This document shows positions 5,506-46,336 of a stretch of DNA of 64,000 nt, in pieces; the stretch's first letter is position 1, and each line of letters opens with the position of its first letter. The notes beneath the pieces were generated by a model that made no database searches, was not told the origin of the DNA, and worked only from the letters and a program-made list of their open reading frames with translations. The position numbers were made by a program, and so were the translations under genes. Origin of the DNA: an uncultured Chloroflexia bacterium (GTDB lineage Bacteria > Chloroflexota > Limnocylindria > Limnocylindrales > CSP1-4); the NCBI GenBank assembly GCA_963710105.1, contig CAVPYV010000002.1:116972-180971 (forward strand), given 5' to 3'.

Positions 5506-8500
5506 TCAGTCGCCCGCCGCCCCGCCGCCGGCTCCGCGCGGCCAGCCCGGTCCGAGCTCGGCGGCATCGCCGGCATCGGCCAGCCGCTCGGCGATCGCGA
5601 GCCGCCAGACCCAGGCCGAGTAGCCGACGACGAGCGCGAGGAACACGACCGCCGCGCCGAGCAGCAGCGGGACCGGCCCGAACAGCTCGGTCTTGACCGT
5701 GGCCGCGACGTTGTTCACCGGGAACTGGAAGGCGTACAGGTAGGTCGGCAGGACGCCCTGGTAGACGTTGGCGATCGCCGTCGGCAGGGGCAGCGCGCTG
5801 AAGTTCGGGTAGACGATGACGAACCAGCCGACGATCGCGACGATCGCGCCGACGACGAACCGGCGGGCATCGCGGGCCGTCGCGACGAACGCCGCGATCA
5901 GCACCGCCGGCAGCGCCAGGACCATCGCCACCGGCTCGACCGGGATGCGGTCGAGGGTGATCAGCGGGCTGTCGGTGATCGTCACCTGGACGAGCCAGCT
6001 CGCGACGATCGCTCCGAGCGCGGTCAGCCCGAGCCAGCCGAGCGTCACCGTCGACGGGCTGAGCTCGCGGCCGCCCACGACGATCGCCCGATCCCCCACC
6101 ACCCGCTCGTCGCCCAGCCGCCCGAACAGGCGAACGACCACGAGGACCGAGATCCCGACGATCAGCGCCATGGCCGCGGTCTGGTTGGTCAGCAGGAACT
6201 GGGGGATGACCGGCGGGCAGGCCTGCGAGCCGGGGTTGGCCTTCTCGACGTTGACGAAGCCGCACAGGGGTCGGTCGAACACCCAGAAGATCGCCGGGCC
6301 GAGGATGGCGACCGCGGCCGCGAGCCGGGCGAGCAGCCACGTCCGCCACGAGGCGCCGTGCCACAGCTCGCCGAGGAAGTAGGCCAGGGCGAGGATCAGG
6401 AACGGCAGGCTCGTGTAGTAGTGGTACTGGAACGCCGCCCGGTCGATCCGGGCCCAGGAGACCCACTGGAAGGCGTAGCCGATCGTGATCAGGGCGAGCG
6501 GCAGGCTCCGCCGGGCGAACGCCTGCCACGCCGCGAACCCGAGGGCCGGCAGGCCGAGCCACCAGACCACGATGTTGCCGGCGTCGTAGATCGCCGCGGT
6601 CGTGTTGCCGGCGAAGCCCTCCTGGTAGAACCAGACCGGCTTCAGGTCGAAGAGCCAGGCCCACCAAGGCGACGATGCGGCGTGCGGGGCGGTCAGGCCG
6701 TTGTGGTAGTTGTACATCGCCCCGGTGAGGTCGGTGAGGCTCTGGCCGGAGTGCCCCGCCGGCCAGCCGGCGAACAGGACGTGGTTGTCGAGGACGGCCC
6801 ACGGGATGTACGAGACCACGTAGATCGCGACGGGCAACACGAGCAGGCAGCCGACCATCCAGGCGACGGGCAGCCCGAGCTGGGCACCCGGCCGGAGCCA
6901 GGCCGCGGCCGGTGGCGGAGCCGGTGGCGGCAGGAGCGCGGCGGGCTCGTCCGGACCCGGGTCCGGCGCGAACGGCCCGAACCCGAGCCGCGCCGCCACC
7001 GCGAACCCGGCCCATGCGACGAGCCCGACGGCCGCCAGGGCGACCGCCAGCTCGAGCGGCGTGACCGTCGCCGACGACAGCGTGATCTCCCGGGACGCGC
7101 TGTTCGTGGCGATCGCCACGAGCGCCACGATCCCGCCGAGCGCCACCGGGCCGCCGATCGCGAAGCGGATCTCGTCGAGCGACCAGCGCAGCGGATGGAG
7201 GACGTTGGCGACCACGGCGGCAACGGTCAGGGCGACCATGATCGCGATGAACGGGAGGTTGCCGAACCCGGTCCCCTGCGGCACGTTGATCGCCAGGTAG
7301 CCGAGCACCGCGGTCATCACGACGAGGGCGGCGATCGCGAGGAGCCGGCCGAGGGCGCTCCGGACGAGGACGAGGAAGCCCATCCCGACGATCGCGTACA
7401 GGGCGACCCACTTCGAGGCGAGGGCCAGGCCGAGCAGGATCCCGATCAGCGGCATCGCGATCCAGAACGCCCCGCGATGGCGCCAGACGCCCGTCCACAG
7501 CGCCGCGAACAGGGTGTAGGCGGCGACGATCCCGAGCCCGACGTAGGCGTCGTTCATCCCGATTCGCGACTGGACGAAGAGCATCCCGTCGGCGACGCAC
7601 AGGATCGCGACGAACACGCCGACGATCCGCCGCCGGAACAGGATGCGGGCGAGGACGAACAGGAAGCCGGCCATCACGGCCCCGGCCAGGACACCGGGCA
7701 GGCGCCAGGCGAACTCGTGCTGGCCGACATCGACGCTGGCCGCCGCCCCGGCGCCATCGAAGACCAGGATCTGCTGGCGGTCGTCGGTCGGATAGGGCCG
7801 GGCGACGTCGACGGCCCAGGCGGAGGGCTCGATCGGCAGGCGGGCGTCGGCGAACACGGCCCGGGCGTGCGGCTCGATCACGTAGATCGTGGCCGAGCTG
7901 CCGTCGGGCGTCCGGCCGAGGACGTGGACCATCTCGCTCGCGTCGTCCCACGCGACCCGCGTCACCGGGCCAGGCATCGCCATCGACTCGAGGAGGGCGG
8001 GGCCGTCCTTCGCCTGGTCGCCGCCGACGGCGACGATCGCGATCCGGCCGCGCTGGTCGGTGGCCGGGTCCGGGTCGGTGCTGACGTAGAGCTTGTCGCC
8101 GTCGACGGTCGTGAGCGCGAGGCCGTGCGCCGCGCCGCCGACGTCGACGGTCGAGGTGAGATCGCCGCTGGCCGGGTTGATCAGCTCCAGCCCGCTCGCG
8201 TCGGCGACCGCGACCTGCGGCAGCGAGTCGATCGTCAGGCCGGCGAGGCGCCCGTCGTCGATCGCCGCCTGGACCGTCGTCCGGGCCGAGCTGCCGGGGA
8301 TGCCGGCGACGACGAGGCGGTCGGCGGTGCCGGAGAGACGCGCCTCGTACGTCGCGGTCGAGCCGCCGATCAGGGCGGCGATGGCCGAGGCGGCGGCCGT
8401 TGGATCCTCGACCGAGCCGGGCGCGCCGACGAGGGTCGGGGCGGTCCCGCCGGGGCCGATGTCGGCGACCGCCTCGAGCTGGACCGTCCCGCGGATCTCG

Positions 8501-37076: not shown

Positions 37077-37453
37077 TGGTGGAGATGGGGGAGAGTCGAA
37101 CTCCCCGTCCAGAACCCTTCGCCGGAGACCACTACGAGCGTGTCCGATGGTTTGTCGTCGACCGCCCGGACGAACATCGGCACCCTGCCGGACGGTCCAG
37201 TCACGTGCCCCTAGATCGGGCTTGATTCCGGACTACGCGACGCTCGTCCGGACCGCATCCCCGCTGAATGACGCTTCCACCGTCCGCGAGGAGGAGACGG
37301 CTTCCACGCTCACACTAGCTGCTTACGCAGCGAGGGCGAGAGTCGACTGGCGGTTGCCAGGTACTTCGTTTTGCTGCCTGATTAACGAGGCCTGAGCAGC
37401 ATCCTCGGCTCGCGTTCCCCGGTAGCCAGGCCCTGTCGAATCCACACATCCCC
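37077..37453 (-). ncRNA. ssrA: tmRNA; predicted tag (A)GNRQSTLALAA* at 37358-37323
   Basis: 5' GGGGATG pairs with 3' CATCTCC-ACCA including the G3-U wobble; GGATTCGAC D-loop-like and GTTCGACTC T-loop motifs; tag ORF ends in LALAA-TAA. Confidence 0.96.
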
Positions 37454-37511: not shown

Positions 37512-37704
37512 GCGCGGGGACCGGGACGATCCTCCCATCGCGGCGGGTCTCGATCGGCTGCTATCGTTGTGAGCGGCCGAACCTCTCATCGAGGGCGGGG
37601 GACCCACGTCCCCACGGGGCAAATCGCGGATCGACCGCGACGGCGAACCCACGCCGCGCCCGACAGCTCACCTCGCAGGCCCGCGGGCTGCTTCGAGGTA
37701 CGCG

Positions 37705-39048
37705 GTGCTCCGGCCGTCACTCTTCAACTCGGCGTCACGCCGCGCGATCGGGCGGAATCTCGCCCTCGACCTGGTCGCCGCGATCGGGATCGGCGTGACG
37801 ATGGCCCTGGTCGGCGCGATCCTGCCGACCGTGGCCCGCCGCAACGGCCTCGACCCGATCGGGCTGTCCGCGCTCGCCGCGGCGCCGTTCGTGGCGAACC
37901 TCCTCGGGGCGTTCGCCGGACGGCTGGGGCCGCGGAACCGCGTCCAGCTCGGCCTCGTCCGCGGCCTCGGGTCGGCGTCGCTGCTCGTCCTCTTCCTGGC
38001 GCCATCGGCCGGCGTCGTCATCCTCGTCGCGATCGCCTTCTGGCTCAGCCTGTCCTTCGGCAACCCGCTCCACTTCCGGTTCTGGGGCGCGATGTACCCC
38101 GCCCGCCTGCGCGGCCGGGTCGTGGGGATCCTCGGGATGGGCCGATCCGGAGCCGGGGCGCTCGCCGCCATCGGCGGCGGCATCCTGGCCGACGTCATCG
38201 GCGGCGAGCAGGCGGTCGCCGTCGCCGGCGCGATCGGCGTCGTGGCCGCGTCCGGCTACCTCGGGTTCCGGGCGGCCGCCGGCGATGCCCCGGCGACCTT
38301 CTCCGCCCGTGAGTCGATCAAGGCCCTTCGCGAGCGTCCTCGCCTGGTCAGCCTCACGATCGCCCAGCTCTTCTACGGCGGCGGGGTGATCGCGGCCACG
38401 CCCCTGTTCGCCCTCGTCCACGTCGACCGGCTCAACCTGAGCCTCGCCGACGTCGGCCTGATCGGTGTCCTGACGGCCGTCGCGACGACGTTGACGTTCC
38501 CCCTCTGGGGCGTCGTCGCGGATCGCCGCGGCGCGGTCATGCCGCTCGCCGCCGGGAGCCTGTTGGGCACGATCGGCCTCGTGGCCTACGCGGTGGCTCC
38601 GAGCGTGGCCTTCCTGTGGGTCGGCGCGCTGGCGCTGGGCGTGGCCAGTGGTGGCATCGACCTCGGGATCGCGTCGGTCGTCAGCGAGGACACGCCGATG
38701 ACGACCCGTGCCGCGGCGATGGCCGGCTGGAACGCGGTCACCGGGGCCCGCGGCATCGTGGCGGCGTTCGCGATGAGCGTGCTGCTCGGAGCGAAGGTCG
38801 TCGACGTGACCGCGGCGCTCCTGCTCTCGGCGGGGATCGCGGGCGTCGGGGTCTGGCTGTTCATCGTCGCCGGGCGGATCCGGCCCGTCGATGGCCTCGT
38901 CACGGAGCCGGCCGCCGCGGCCGCCGCCGGGTCCTGGTCGTCGGGGGTGCCGGCTCCCGCCGCGCCGGCACCCGCCTCGCCCGCGGCCGCTCCGGCCGGA
39001 GCGCGCCTCTCGAGCCAGGGGCGGATCGCGGAGACGCCTCGCCTGTGA
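37705..39048 (+). CDS. MFS transporter
   Basis: About 12 TM helices; MYPARLRGRVVG and WGVVADRRGA loop motifs. Confidence 0.88.
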   Translation: MLRPSLFNSASRRAIGRNLALDLVAAIGIGVTMALVGAILPTVARRNGLDPIGLSALAAAPFVANLLGAFAGRLGPRNRVQLGLVRGLGSASLLVLFLAPSAGVVILVAIAFWLSLSFGNPLHFRFWGAMYPARLRGRVVGILGMGRSGAGALAAIGGGILADVIGGEQAVAVAGAIGVVAASGYLGFRAAAGDAPATFSARESIKALRERPRLVSLTIAQLFYGGGVIAATPLFALVHVDRLNLSLADVGLIGVLTAVATTLTFPLWGVVADRRGAVMPLAAGSLLGTIGLVAYAVAPSVAFLWVGALALGVASGGIDLGIASVVSEDTPMTTRAAAMAGWNAVTGARGIVAAFAMSVLLGAKVVDVTAALLLSAGIAGVGVWLFIVAGRIRPVDGLVTEPAAAAAAGSWSSGVPAPAAPAPASPAAAPAGARLSSQGRIAETPRL

Positions 39049-39103: not shown

Positions 39104-39718
39104 GTGCGATTGACGGCGTGGGAGGAGGAGCGGCTCCTGGTCTTCACGGCCGCGGAGCTCGCCCGGCGGCACCGCGCGGCCGGCCTGCTCCTGAACGCGC
39201 CGGAGGCGATCGCGATCATCTGCGACGCGATGCTCGAGGCTGCCCGGGCGGACGGCTCCCTCGCCGAGGTCGAGGCAGCAGGGCGCGTCGCGGTCGCGGC
39301 GGACGAGGTGATCGACGGCGTCCGCGAGCTCGTCGACGAGGTCCGCCTCGAGGTCCTCGTCGGGGACGGAACCCGGCTGGTCGTCCTGGGCGACCCGCTC
39401 GGGGGCGGTCGGCCGATGGCGGCGCAGGCGCCGGGGGCGATCGTCGCCGGCCCCGGCCGGCCGGTCTCGCACGACGGGCGGGAGCGGCGGCGCCTGGTCG
39501 TGCGCAGCGAGTCGCGCCGGACCATCCGGGTGTCCTCGCACCACCCGTTCGACCGGGTGAACGCCCGACTCGTCTTCGATCGCGCCGCGGCGGCCGGCTT
39601 CCGGCTCGACCTGCCGGCCGGGATGTCGGAGGCCTGGGCTCCCGGTGAGGAGCGGACGGTCGAGCTGGTCCGCTATGGCGGCTCGGGCGGTGAGCCCGGG
39701 TCGCGAGAGGGGCGGTGA
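39104..39718 (+). CDS. fused urease gamma/beta-like subunit
   Basis: 3' part of ORF 38891..39718; RLTAWEEERLL, GLLLNAPEAIA, DGTRLV, I-x-VSSHHPF-x2-VN-x-RL-x-FDR-x3-AGFRLDLPAG. Confidence 0.85.
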   Translation: MRLTAWEEERLLVFTAAELARRHRAAGLLLNAPEAIAIICDAMLEAARADGSLAEVEAAGRVAVAADEVIDGVRELVDEVRLEVLVGDGTRLVVLGDPLGGGRPMAAQAPGAIVAGPGRPVSHDGRERRRLVVRSESRRTIRVSSHHPFDRVNARLVFDRAAAAGFRLDLPAGMSEAWAPGEERTVELVRYGGSGGEPGSREGR

Positions 39719-39722
39719 GCCG

Positions 39723-41396
39723 GTGACCCGCGCGCTCGATCCCGCGGAGCGCCTCGCCCGCTACGGCCCGACCGTCGGCGATCGGGTCCGCCTCGCCGAC
39801 ACCGACCTCTGGGTCCGCGTCGAGGAGGACCGTCAGGCGCCGGGTGACGAGCCGATCTGGGGCTACGCGAAGACGCTCCGATCGCGGATGGCCCAGGCCG
39901 GCCGGGCGAGCGACTCCGAGCTCGACGTGCTGGTCGCGGGTGCGCTCGTGATCGACCCGACGATCGGGGTCGTCAAGGCCGACATCGGGATCAAGGACGG
40001 CCGGATCGTCGGGATCGGGCGGGCGGGCAACCCGGCGATCAGCGACGGGATCGAGCTGGAGATCGGGCCGCACACGGCCTCGATCATGGCCTACGGGCTG
40101 ATCGCGACGCCGGGCGCGGTCGACAGCCACGTCCACCTGATCAGCCCGGAGCTCCTGCCGGCCGCTTTGTCGGGCGGGGTGACGACGCTGATCACCGCCG
40201 GGTTCGAGGAGCCGCCCCGGGCGATGAGCCAGACGCTCGCCGCGACGGCCGGCTGGCCGTTGAACATCGGCCTTCAGGCCTGCGCCCGGTCGGAGGCGGC
40301 GGCCGACCTGGAGGCGCTGCTCGCCGCCGGAGCGATCGGGTTCAAGATCCACGAGGACTACGGAGCAGATCCCGGACTGATCGACGCGACCCTTCGGTTC
40401 GCCGATGCGGCCGACGTCGCCGTCTCGCTCCACACGGACGGCCTCCACGAGTCGGCCGAGCTCGAGGACACGGTCGCCGCGATCGACGGGCGGACCGTCC
40501 ACGCCTACCACGTCGAGGGGACGGGCGGCGGCCACGTCCCCGACCTGCTCGGGCTGGCCCGCGAGCCGAACATCATCTGCTCGTCGACCACGCCGACGAT
40601 CCCGTTCGGGGTGAGCACGGCCGCCGAGCATGTCGCGATGATCGTGCTCAACCACGGCGGCTCGATGGGGGTGGCGGCCGACGTCGCGCTGGCGGCCGGC
40701 CGGATCCATCCGGCGACGATGGCGGCCGAGGGTCCGCTCCACGACCTGGGCGCGATCCAGATCATCAACTCCAATTCGCAGGGCATGGGTCGGATCATGG
40801 AGACCGTTCGGCGGACCCTCCAGCTTGGTAGCGTGCTGACACGCTGGCGTGGTAGCACGCTGCAACGGGAGGACGAGGCGGACAACGCGCGCGTCCTCCG
40901 CTACCTCGCCAAGGTCACGATCGAGCCGGCGATCACCCACGGCGTCGCCGACCATGTCGGCTCGCTCCGGGTCGGCCGGCTGGCCGACATCGTGCTCTGG
41001 AAGCCGGCCTGGTTCGGCGCCAAGCCGGAGCTCGTCCTGAAATCCGGCGTCGCCGCCTGGGCGCCGCTCGGCGATGGCAACGCCACGGTCGAGCGGGCCG
41101 AGCCGACGCGCTACCGACCCGACTGGGGCGCCGCCCCGCGCCTCGCCGCTCAGCTCGGGGTGACCTTCGCCCCGCCGTCGGCCGTGGACGACCTCCGGCG
41201 GCGCTCGCCGCGCGGCCGGGAGGTGGTCGCGATCGGCCGGACCCGCGGCCTCACCCGGGCGGACCTCTGGCTCAACCGGGCCACGGCGCCGATCGAGATC
41301 GACCCGACCGACGGCCGCGTGACGCTGAACGGCGAGCCTCTGGCGATCGACTCCGTCGTCGAGGTCCCGCTCAGCCGGCGCTACTTCCTGCGCTGA
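39723..41396 (+). CDS. divergent urease alpha-like amidohydrolase
   Basis: [53 protein letters not shown] and VPLSRRYFL; the canonical SDS is SNS and the flap CHH is NHG. Confidence 0.85.
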   Translation: MTRALDPAERLARYGPTVGDRVRLADTDLWVRVEEDRQAPGDEPIWGYAKTLRSRMAQAGRASDSELDVLVAGALVIDPTIGVVKADIGIKDGRIVGIGRAGNPAISDGIELEIGPHTASIMAYGLIATPGAVDSHVHLISPELLPAALSGGVTTLITAGFEEPPRAMSQTLAATAGWPLNIGLQACARSEAAADLEALLAAGAIGFKIHEDYGADPGLIDATLRFADAADVAVSLHTDGLHESAELEDTVAAIDGRTVHAYHVEGTGGGHVPDLLGLAREPNIICSSTTPTIPFGVSTAAEHVAMIVLNHGGSMGVAADVALAAGRIHPATMAAEGPLHDLGAIQIINSNSQGMGRIMETVRRTLQLGSVLTRWRGSTLQREDEADNARVLRYLAKVTIEPAITHGVADHVGSLRVGRLADIVLWKPAWFGAKPELVLKSGVAAWAPLGDGNATVERAEPTRYRPDWGAAPRLAAQLGVTFAPPSAVDDLRRRSPRGREVVAIGRTRGLTRADLWLNRATAPIEIDPTDGRVTLNGEPLAIDSVVEVPLSRRYFLR

Positions 41397-41440: not shown

Positions 41441-42547
41441 TCAGGCCCAGATGTCGCCGATCGTGAAGCCGTCGGGAAAGGGGTCGGTCGGGTCCACGAC
41501 GTAGTCGGCGATCCCGGTGATCCAGGCCTGGCCGGTGATCTGGGGCACGACCGCGGCGCGGTCGCCGATCCGCGTCTCCTCGAGGAGCCGACCCGTGAAC
41601 ACCGTCCCGAGGATCCCCTCGTGGCGGAAGTCGTCGCCGATCGCGAGTCGGCCCCGCGCATGCAGCGTTGCCATCCGGGCCGAGGTGCCCGTCCCGCACG
41701 GCGAGCGGTCGATCGCCCCGGTCCACGTCGCGGGCCGCTCCCAGTCGAGCGCGCCGGACGACACCGTCACGACGTTCCGCATCGAGTTCACCGGATCGTG
41801 CGCCGGCCCGGACAGCTGGCCGATCGTGATCCCCGCGAACCCCGGCTGCTCCGGATGGACGACCGGCAGCTGCTCGTTCGCGGCGGCCTTGATCATCTCG
41901 GTGATCCGGGCGATGTCGGCGCCCTCGTCCGGCGTCAGGCGCAGCCCGAACGCCTCGGCCGAGGCGATCACGTAGAACATCCCGCCGTACGCGACGTCGA
42001 CCGTGACCGCGCCCAGCTGGGGGACCTCCACGACCGCGTCGAGATGGGTCGCGAACGCCGGCACGTTGCGGAAGGTGACGGCGGTCACCTTCCCGTCCGA
42101 GCAGGCGGCGCGCACCCGGATGAGCCCGGCGGGCGCCTCGAGGGTCAGCTCGGTCACGGGCTCGGCCATCGGCAGGATCCCGGTCTCGAGGAGCGCCGTG
42201 ACGACGCACATCGTGTTCGTCCCGCTCATCCCGGGGTACTCGACCTGCTCCATGATCACGTAGCCGGCCGCCGCCTCGGGATGAGCCGACGGCAGGATCA
42301 GGTTGCAGTTCGCCGCCGGGAAGCCGCGCGGCTCGCGGAGCATCCGCAGGCGGAGGTCGTCGCGATTCGCCTGGAGCCAGGTCATCGCCTCGAACATCGT
42401 CCCGCCGGGAACGCCCTCGACGCCGCCGACGATCACCCGGCCGGGCTCGCCGCAGGCGTGCAGGTCGACCGCCCGGATCGTGGGGCCGAGGCGAAGGGGC
42501 GGCCGTTCCGACGCGGGGTTCACGGTTCGAGCGTAGCGTCGAGCCAC
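41441..42547 (-). CDS. proline racemase superfamily protein (Ser/Cys dyad; start uncertain)
   Basis: HACGEPGRV, LREPRG, GMSGTN, VDVAYGGMFY and IDRSPCGTGTSA. Confidence 0.9.
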   Translation of the reverse strand: MARRYARTVNPASERPPLRLGPTIRAVDLHACGEPGRVIVGGVEGVPGGTMFEAMTWLQANRDDLRLRMLREPRGFPAANCNLILPSAHPEAAAGYVIMEQVEYPGMSGTNTMCVVTALLETGILPMAEPVTELTLEAPAGLIRVRAACSDGKVTAVTFRNVPAFATHLDAVVEVPQLGAVTVDVAYGGMFYVIASAEAFGLRLTPDEGADIARITEMIKAAANEQLPVVHPEQPGFAGITIGQLSGPAHDPVNSMRNVVTVSSGALDWERPATWTGAIDRSPCGTGTSARMATLHARGRLAIGDDFRHEGILGTVFTGRLLEETRIGDRAAVVPQITGQAWITGIADYVVDPTDPFPDGFTIGDIWA

Positions 42548-43008
42548 CAGCGCCGCTCGGCCGCCCGCTCCCCGAACAGGTCCTCCTCGAACGCCTCGCG
42601 GGGGACGAACCCGCGGCGCTCATAGAAGACCTCGCCCTTGCGGTTGCCGGTCAGGACGTCGGCGACGACCGGCCGGTCCGGATACCGAGCCCGAAGCGTC
42701 GAGAGGAGCAGCGTGCCGGCCCCCTCGCCGCGCCGCCCCGGATCGGCGTAGATCGCGACGAGGCTGAGCCGGTCGGCCTCGGGCAGCGCATCGGCGAAGG
42801 CGAGGATCCCGCCGTCGTCCTCGGCGACCAGGACGACGTGGCCGGCGATCCGTCGCTCCAGCCGCTCGACTGTGTAGGCCGCGTTCACGAACGCCTCGAT
42901 CGTGGCCGCCGCGAGGAGCCCCGCGTAGGTGTCGCGCCAGGCCGCCCGGGCGACGACCCCGATCGCGGCCGCGTCGGTGGCAGTGGCGTCGCGGACCCGG
43001 AGGGCCAT
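42520..43008 (-). CDS. GNAT acetyltransferase
   Basis: VRDATATDA-x2-I, IYADPGRRGEGAGTLLL and FYERRGF. Confidence 0.85.
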   Translation of the reverse strand: MALRVRDATATDAAAIGVVARAAWRDTYAGLLAAATIEAFVNAAYTVERLERRIAGHVVLVAEDDGGILAFADALPEADRLSLVAIYADPGRRGEGAGTLLLSTLRARYPDRPVVADVLTGNRKGEVFYERRGFVPREAFEEDLFGERAAERRWWLDATLEP

Positions 43009-45445: not shown

Positions 45446-46336
45446 TCAGCGGATCAGGTAGGTCCGGACCGACAGCCACGACCCGAGGACCCCGAGCCCG
45501 AGCCCGGCCGCGGTCACGATCACGACCAGGTCGCGGGCGAGCGTGTCGAAGCTGAGCGGCAGGACGCGGAAGAAGTCGACCATGAAGCTGCCGATCGGGT
45601 CGGCCAGGACGTACAGCCCGCCGAGGGTGATCGCCGCCCCGAGCAGCCCGACCATCGCCCCCTCGAACACGAACGGCCAGCGGATGAACGCGTCGGACGC
45701 GCCGACGAGCCGCATGATCTCGATCTCCTCGTGGCGGGCGACCACCGCGAGGCGGATCGTGTTGACGATGATGAACAGGACGATCACGCCGATCACGACC
45801 AGGATCGCGCTGCCGGCCGTCCGCATGATGTCAGTCACGGTCTTGACGTTCTGGGCGGTCTCCTTCGTGTCGAGCACGTTCCGGACGGCCGGGTTCCGCG
45901 TCGGCTGGAGGGCGGCCGCGACCGGGCCGGCGAAGCTCGGGTCGGTGAGCTTGACCTCGTAGCTCGGCGGGAACGGGTTCGTGTCGAGGTACTTCGAGAG
46001 GTCCTCGCGGCCCTGGTCCTTCATGCTCTGCTGGAACCGGGCCAGGGCCTGCTCGCGGGTGACGAGGGTCACGCCGGCGACGCCCGGCATCGCCCGGATC
46101 GTCTGGCCGAGGGTCGCCGCCGCCTCGGGCGTGGTGTCGACGTTCATGTTCACCTGGACCTCGACCTTCAATTCGGTGAAGTCGAGGGCCGAGAGCAGGC
46201 CAGTCTGGAGGATCCAGAAGCCCGCCAGGAGGAGGAGCATCAGGACCATCGTCGCGGTCGCGGCGAGGGACATCAGGGCGTTCCGCCAGAAGCCCTGCCA
46301 GGCGCGGCGGAGGCTGAACACGACGAAGCCGATCAT
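45446..46336 (-). CDS. ftsX: cell division permease FtsX
   Basis: FWRNALMS, NPFPPSYEV, IVNTIRL and EIEIMRLVGASDAFIRWPFVFEG. Confidence 0.93.
   Translation of the reverse strand: MIGFVVFSLRRAWQGFWRNALMSLAATATMVLMLLLLAGFWILQTGLLSALDFTELKVEVQVNMNVDTTPEAAATLGQTIRAMPGVAGVTLVTREQALARFQQSMKDQGREDLSKYLDTNPFPPSYEVKLTDPSFAGPVAAALQPTRNPAVRNVLDTKETAQNVKTVTDIMRTAGSAILVVIGVIVLFIIVNTIRLAVVARHEEIEIMRLVGASDAFIRWPFVFEGAMVGLLGAAITLGGLYVLADPIGSFMVDFFRVLPLSFDTLARDLVVIVTAAGLGLGVLGSWLSVRTYLIR

Follow-up and report, generated by a model that had tools for sequence, protein, structure and literature searches.

What does it mean when a urease homologue carries an asparagine in place of an aspartate that binds nickel? 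The question is raised by a urease-like gene pair, ure(AB) followed by a ureC-like gene, in a 64,000-nucleotide stretch of DNA from an uncultured Chloroflexia bacterium (contig CAVPYV010000002.1 of assembly GCA_963710105.1), here called the window. A first-pass annotation of this DNA had combined the Asp-to-Asn change with an altered flap, a replaced glycine-rich segment and the lack of maturation genes to propose a non-urea amidohydrolase or a different metal site, fed by an adjacent major facilitator superfamily (MFS) transporter. Its sequence observations on the locus were all borne out by the translations and by alignment to the ureases of H. pylori and jack bean. The headline change from Asp to Asn is nonetheless ordinary or artefactual, and what lies beneath it is a clade that, going by its members' sequences, appears to be an accessory-independent, uncharacterised urease paralogue, a variant of a known enzyme family. 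On balance the locus is best explained as a conserved ure(AB)+ureC pair typical of Ca. Limnocylindrales, in which the asparagine of this one copy is a probable error or a recent knockout.

The gene pair and its active site

The window has a G+C content of 72% and lies on the 250-kb contig of a 3.47-Mb assembly in 3 contigs, with an estimated completeness of 82% (G000 denotes this soil genome, G003, G005 and G006 other genomes, and L-numbers related loci). The window's closest protein relatives carry the names Chloroflexota or Ca. Limnocylindrales; the Limnocylindrales are among the most abundant soil Chloroflexota lineages. On the forward strand, ure(AB) (39104..39718; GTG start, 204 residues) encodes a fused urease gamma/beta subunit, identified by Pfam domains and NCBIfam models, with Urease_gamma (PF00547) at residues 2-98 and Urease_beta (PF00699) at residues 110-194. 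It scores 191 bits against NCBIfam NF009671 'bifunctional gamma/beta', below the 243-bit cut-off, and is 62-75% identical to its counterparts in relatives. The gene for the ureC-like alpha (catalytic) subunit (39723..41396, forward strand; 557 residues), identified by Pfam, NCBIfam and alignment, has its GTG start 4 nt past the ure(AB) stop. Its product combines the Urease_alpha N-domain (PF00449) with the amidohydrolase barrel (PF01979), and it aligns over its full length with ureases of known structure (1E9Y chain B over residues 8-550, E = 5e-138). The only NCBIfam model that it passes is the broad subfamily model NF009686, with 631 bits against a cut-off of 354, while it falls below the equivalog cut-offs of TIGR01792 (549 versus 680 bits) and NF009685 (555 versus 907).

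Alignment to solved ureases confirmed that the metal-ligand motifs are intact at the His-x-His pair (HVH, 40128-40136), at the carbamylatable lysine (in FKIHED, 40341-40358) and at both later histidines (those in LHTD and YHVEG). In K. aerogenes numbering the catalytic residues are His219, Asp221, the flap His320 and Arg336, and the aligned columns of the window protein hold H, D, H and R. The window copy has five of the six urease metal ligands, and in the sixth place Asn351 stands for the Ni2-ligand aspartate (D360 in K. aerogenes, D363 in S. pasteurii). The alignment bears out the reported change from SDS to SNS through the codon AAT (40773..40775, forward strand), which lies in the motif NSNSQGMGR (40767-40793). 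In S. pasteurii this aspartate, Asp363, is a Ni(2) ligand and the proposed proton shuttle (PMC7433671).

The asparagine is private to this copy

Conservation of the asparagine in orthologues was checked and not found. In a collection of 5.8 billion proteins, the best orthologues (78-91% identical) read NSDSQGM in 120 out of 120 cases, and NSNSQGM occurs in the window protein only. The tree places the window protein far inside the Asp clade, and its sister there, P0003 (91% identical), has Asp. Tallied over the whole family, the ligand position holds Asp in 352 of 355 proteins and Asn in 3. The two Asn proteins other than that of the window came from a scan for N-S-N-S-Q-G-M-G-R over one genome per prokaryotic species, which returned two further urease-like genes, at L022 (66% identical to the window alpha subunit) and L028 (74%); around each of them the roughly 110-120 nearest relatives, members of its own 90% cluster among them, all have Asp. 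In all three copies the codon is AAT and the surrounding sequence, C-AAT-TCG-CAG-GGC-ATG-GG, is identical. The codon at this position in orthologues is GAC or GAT, and those nearest relatives of the window gene for which DNA is available use GAT in the same context. These comparisons indicate that the same G-to-A transition (GAT to AAT) appears three times independently, each time at a tip, and that Asn351 is a private one-transition deviation, no evolved feature of the enzyme.

Since the asparagine is private, with Asp in the closest relative as in nearly all of the family, it lends no support to a designed different metal site, and this part of the first-pass interpretation loses its footing. 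What proved decisive was the caveat attached to that interpretation, namely that AAT might be a recent mutation or a read error: the relatives carry Asp. AAT is indeed rare in this genome: of the Asn codons in 1197 long open reading frames, it accounts for 5.1%. A reading in which the recurrent Asp-to-Asn change is adaptive, and marks an evolved metal site or chemistry in a distinct enzyme or binding protein, can draw on three independent occurrences exactly at the ligand position and on a family whose pocket is already remodelled. However, each occurrence is a tip singleton with Asp in relatives at 89-92% identity, no co-varying change or fixation was seen in any clade, and the change is restricted to one type of assembly, all of which makes an adaptive origin highly improbable.

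Consensus error or recent mutation at position 40773

The recurrence of the same transition as a singleton in three long-read metagenome-assembled genomes (MAGs) may reflect a reproducible consensus artefact. Asn occurs in 3 of the 37 long-contig family members as against 0 of the 318 short-contig ones (Fisher p = 0.001). L022 and L028 derive from MFD-LR MAGs, which are Nanopore-only assemblies polished with a single round of Medaka (PMC12313526), and the 3 contigs of the window's assembly suggest that it too is long-read. Methylation-induced Nanopore errors are in the great majority of cases A/G or C/T ambiguities, and their minimal motif is R-A / T-Y (PMC11610573). The case at 40773 resembles them in that the putative G called as A precedes an A and that the same k-mer change appears in three assemblies; it differs in that G000 shows no motif-wide signal and many long-read assemblies are unaffected. 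The gene itself bears no mark of decay: for pairs that include the window gene, covering relatives other than its closest orthologue P0003, the ratio of non-synonymous to synonymous substitution rates is 0.15-0.25, like that of other pairs, with no relaxation of constraint. A second CAATTCG in the window, in ftsX on the minus strand (46169-46175), has its changed base (46170) at the second position of codon 56, where G000 reads TTG (Leu) and relatives read TCG or TCC (Ser) or CAG (Gln). The serine-encoding site in relatives is CGATTCG, the change to CAATTCG is the same as that behind the urease Asn, and the ftsX site, which may be a second consensus error, was counted in favour of an artefact. 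Taken together this circumstantial case makes it likely that Asn351 is a long-read (Nanopore-type) consensus error.

Several observations weigh against an artefact. The low contig number of the window's assembly, 3, is the sole ground for taking it to be Nanopore-derived. In the same context GAT is retained by at least 12 long-contig assemblies, including one whose 26-mer is identical but for the G, so that any error would have to be partial or strain-specific. Within G000 no genome-wide conversion of GAT to AAT was seen, k-mer ratios being unexceptional and in-frame AAT-TCG numbering 18 against 122 for GAT-TCG, and a direction-asymmetry test, which compared G000 with short-read relatives in the R-A-T context, gave no excess of sites with A in the former and G in the latter. 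The 10-mer CAATTCGCAG, set against CGATTCGCAG, is over-represented in few-contig assemblies (24:74, compared with 6:71 in many-contig assemblies; p = 0.004), but the control 10-mer CAATTGCCAG is likewise commoner in few-contig assemblies (11 versus 4), and since the two excesses are similar the first is unspecific and the 10-mer test was not relied on. A fully penetrant motif error was considered separately and rejected, as GATTCG is abundant in G000 and the long-contig relatives just mentioned keep GAT.

Were the asparagine real, the G of a CpG site would have mutated to A recently, and this copy would have lost all or much of its activity and be a pseudoenzyme or a pseudogene in the making. 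The AAT codon does stand in the assembly, the many long-contig assemblies with GAT in the same context argue that the context does not force an error, and the lack of a genome-wide signal in G000 points the same way. The window protein (P0002) furthermore departs alone from otherwise constant columns in 3 places, a number equalled but not exceeded among the 121 sequences, and the residue concerned is both a Ni2 ligand and a participant in proton transfer (PMC7433671), so that its loss would be expected to cripple the enzyme. Against this, the same change appears at the tips of three species and in long-contig assemblies only, selection on the window branch is not relaxed, and the reading frame and all other catalytic residues are intact. 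We consider a genuine substitution a possible but doubtful explanation, and in that event a very recent mutation crippling the window copy would be the form it took, which we hold equally tentatively. With a consensus error as the preferred explanation, the ligand change should receive no biological interpretation ahead of a check of the reads; reproducible consensus artefacts of this kind can yield false 'pseudoenzymes' in Nanopore-only catalogues.

A remodelled pocket and flap across the clade

What remains distinctive once the asparagine is set aside is the pocket. The replacement of the canonical GGGTGP...TCTPG segment by AGFEEPP, noted in the first-pass annotation, was confirmed and appears in the alignment as a 10-residue gap: the loop TAGFEEPPRAM (40194..40226, forward strand) takes the place of GGGTGPADGTNATTCTPG, the canonical GGGTGPADGTNATT(C/I)TPG stretch is reduced to AGFEEPP, and the residue equivalent to Ala170 is gone, the deleted stretch spanning Ala167/Ala170 (K. 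aerogenes / S. pasteurii numbering). Equally, alignment to solved ureases upheld the change of the flap motif from CHH to NHG (40650..40658, forward strand), in which the catalytic histidine is retained, the cysteine is replaced by asparagine and the second histidine by glycine; this flap is present in 111 of 121 orthologues. A further substitution turns Ala366 (S. pasteurii numbering) into glycine. In the urea-bound structure of the S. pasteurii enzyme, the Ala170 carbonyl, together with the carbonyls of Ala366 and Gly280, hydrogen-bonds to urea (PMC7433671).

The clade comprises more than 350 sequences, marked by AGFEEPPW in place of the Ala170 loop, by the NHG flap and by the absence of UreD, UreF and UreG. 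Both the NHG flap and the AGFEEPP(W) loop hardly vary within it, which argues that the remodelled pocket is under selection or constraint. At the family level its members have a complete dinuclear site, made up of two histidines, the carbamylatable lysine, two more histidines and the aspartate. Most of the clade has EEPPWAM within the replacement loop, whereas the window protein and P0003, its closest relative, have EEPPRAM; the Trp-to-Arg change, at alpha residues 165-166 (about 40215-40220), is lineage-specific and found in 6 of 121 sequences.

Absence of maturation and nickel-import genes

The lack of maturation genes around the pair extends, for ureD, ureF and ureG, to the whole assembly. 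A search with the TIGR00101 hidden Markov model (HMM) gave no UreG/HypB-type hit in its 3.47 Mb, and tblastn with proteins of a congener's canonical cluster found no UreF, UreG or UreD in the genome, the best E-values being 0.05-0.45. Nickel importers of the NiCoT and CbiM types are also absent from G000. In a survey of the genus, the paralogue was present in 16 of 19 genomes and ureG in G003 and G005 only, in each case beside a canonical ureABC-FGD cluster whose product is 41-50% identical to the window protein. Fifteen of the 16 paralogue-carrying genomes have no ureG, and G003 carries both the canonical cluster and the paralogue.

Some observations on assembly quality were made alongside. 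In the ureA-ureB-ureC-ureF-ureG-ureD cluster of G005, which is otherwise intact, the canonical ureC (L020, G005:C6, about 6370-8090) falls into two overlapping reading frames. The split looks like the result of indel errors in a long-read assembly; that assembly has 6 contigs and an estimated completeness of 64%. Several other few-contig congeners have estimated completeness values of 64-84%, and the low values of few-contig assemblies, G000 with its 82% included, may reflect marker genes broken by consensus errors, not missing DNA. By the genome search, the urease-alpha orthologue of G006 (L004, G006:C23, 1501-3183) has one in-frame TAG.

The neighbouring transporter, riboswitch and housekeeping genes

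Upstream of the pair, between a transfer-messenger RNA (tmRNA) gene on the minus strand (37077-37453) and the pair, a cyclic di-AMP riboswitch aptamer (37565..37695, forward strand; Rfam RF00379, 56.8 bits against a gathering threshold of 38) lies directly 5' of a gene for an MFS transporter of 447 residues (37705..39048, forward strand; Pfam MFS_1), which ends 55 nt before ure(AB). No terminator-like site was found between the MFS gene and ure(AB). The riboswitch always accompanies the MFS gene and precedes it in six related loci, and the MFS gene stands upstream of ure(AB) in the loci of 5 relatives. The module is missing from two of nine relatives that keep the urease pair (L015 and L016), where ure(AB) adjoins the tmRNA gene, and in L028 an AHSA1-family gene on the opposite strand separates the MFS gene from ure(AB). 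The riboswitch-MFS module moves independently of the urease pair. On the 3' side, and on the other strand, follow a proline-racemase-family gene, a GNAT acetyltransferase gene, smpB, an S41 peptidase gene (ctp), ftsX, ftsE and prfB, a block that is a housekeeping cluster. The GNAT gene (42520-43008, minus strand), between the racemase-family gene and smpB, is not conserved: a search of nine related loci gave no counterpart. Its 3' end runs 28 nt into the start of the racemase-family open reading frame.

Gene context was also searched for a functional partner, and none is conserved, the block in the window being housekeeping and L022 having ku and a ligase gene downstream of its urease pair. 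For want of such a partner the suggestion that the enzyme is fed by the adjacent MFS transporter is a weak one, the more so as the riboswitch governs the MFS gene directly, the module is missing from two relatives and an antisense gene intervenes in L028. Any link of the riboswitch and transporter to the urease pair is uncertain.

What the clade may do

By analogy with ureases that dispense with helpers, we infer that the clade may represent a self-maturing amidohydrolase with two metals, active on urea or on a close analogue of it. Such an enzyme would have a Lys-carbamate-bridged pair of metals, would be loaded with metal without GTP-dependent chaperones, as are the B. subtilis urease and the H. 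mustelae Fe-urease UreA2B2, and would hydrolyse urea or else a small ureido or amide compound closely akin to it. The deletion of the Ala170 loop suggests that the enzyme may not be a plain urease. Here the first-pass proposal of a non-urea amidohydrolase or a different metal fares better than at the ligand position: with the asparagine removed from its footing, the loop, the flap and the absence of helper genes all stand and are clade-wide, and the conserved changes in loop and flap together with the missing maturation genes make a non-urea substrate or another mode of metal loading a reasonable hypothesis for the family. That the clade is a distinct self-maturing two-metal amidohydrolase, using a metal other than chaperone-delivered nickel or a ureido or amide substrate other than urea, is a tentative proposal.

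Another reading would make the clade no urease at all, its substrate being a larger ureido or amide compound imported by the riboswitch-controlled MFS transporter. Several features fit: an acidic, conserved EEPPW loop stands where the residue whose carbonyl binds a urea nitrogen has been deleted, the flap cysteine and second histidine are changed and Ala366 is a glycine, the protein scores below the cut-off of every 'equivalog' urease HMM, G003 holds the paralogue alongside a canonical ureABC-FGD cluster, G000 has no NiCoT or CbiM nickel importer, and the MFS gene is close by with no terminator-like site between. However, the family keeps all metal ligands and the four catalytic side chains of urease, the paralogue is the sole urease homologue in most genomes, the MFS gene and riboswitch are absent or set apart from ure(AB) in the three loci described above, and the downstream smpB, ctp, ftsEX and prfB are housekeeping genes, with no other functional neighbour conserved. 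On these grounds a larger, imported substrate seems rather unlikely.

Whichever substrate applies, members of the family are everywhere annotated 'urease subunit alpha', although they have neither the urea-binding loop nor the known maturation factors. If active, the family bears on how ureases without UreDFG acquire their metal, and on what share of the 'urease potential' of soil metagenomes is true urea hydrolysis.

Comparison with known urease systems

The closest parallel in gene order is provided by the ure(AB)C-only clusters of Streptomyces (SCO5525/SCO5526 of S. coelicolor, and S. avermitilis), noted in 2008 (PMC2492869). Like the window pair, and likened to it by gene order alone, these actinobacterial orphan clusters consist of a gamma/beta fusion gene and, after it, an alpha gene, and have no accessory genes beside them; in actinobacteria a canonical cluster is often present elsewhere in the genome (PMC2492869). 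A literature search turned up no ure(AB)C-only paralogue that has been characterised biochemically. The search of database representatives also revealed other non-canonical urease clades, 47-49% identical, which keep all ligands and have different loops and flaps, with replacement loops such as GGGMGLVFDVGTNP and AQDFGPVWNLGANP; to our knowledge none of these clades has been characterised biochemically.

Precedents for ureases that work without dedicated helpers are the UreABC of B. subtilis and the H. mustelae Fe-urease UreA2B2 (PMC6737895), which share with the window pair, itself known from genes alone, a set of structural genes without dedicated maturation genes. The H. mustelae enzyme (3QGA) is among the sequence matches of the window alpha subunit (E = 8e-134). 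Unlike the window family, both the B. subtilis and the H. mustelae enzymes, as far as is known, keep the canonical pocket loop and the CHH flap.

The canonical UreABC nickel ureases, with the structures from K. aerogenes (2KAU/1FWJ), S. pasteurii (4UBP) and H. pylori (1E9Y), differ from the window pair in several respects: in the window the gamma and beta subunits are fused, the Ala170 loop is deleted, CHH is replaced by NHG and Ala366 by glycine, the alpha subunit is only 42-43% identical to canonical-type database representatives, the genome has no UreD, UreF or UreG, and this particular copy reads Asn for Asp. Beneath these differences the family has the same gamma/beta/alpha set, the same full-length fold, all six ligand positions and the four catalytic residues of the canonical enzymes.

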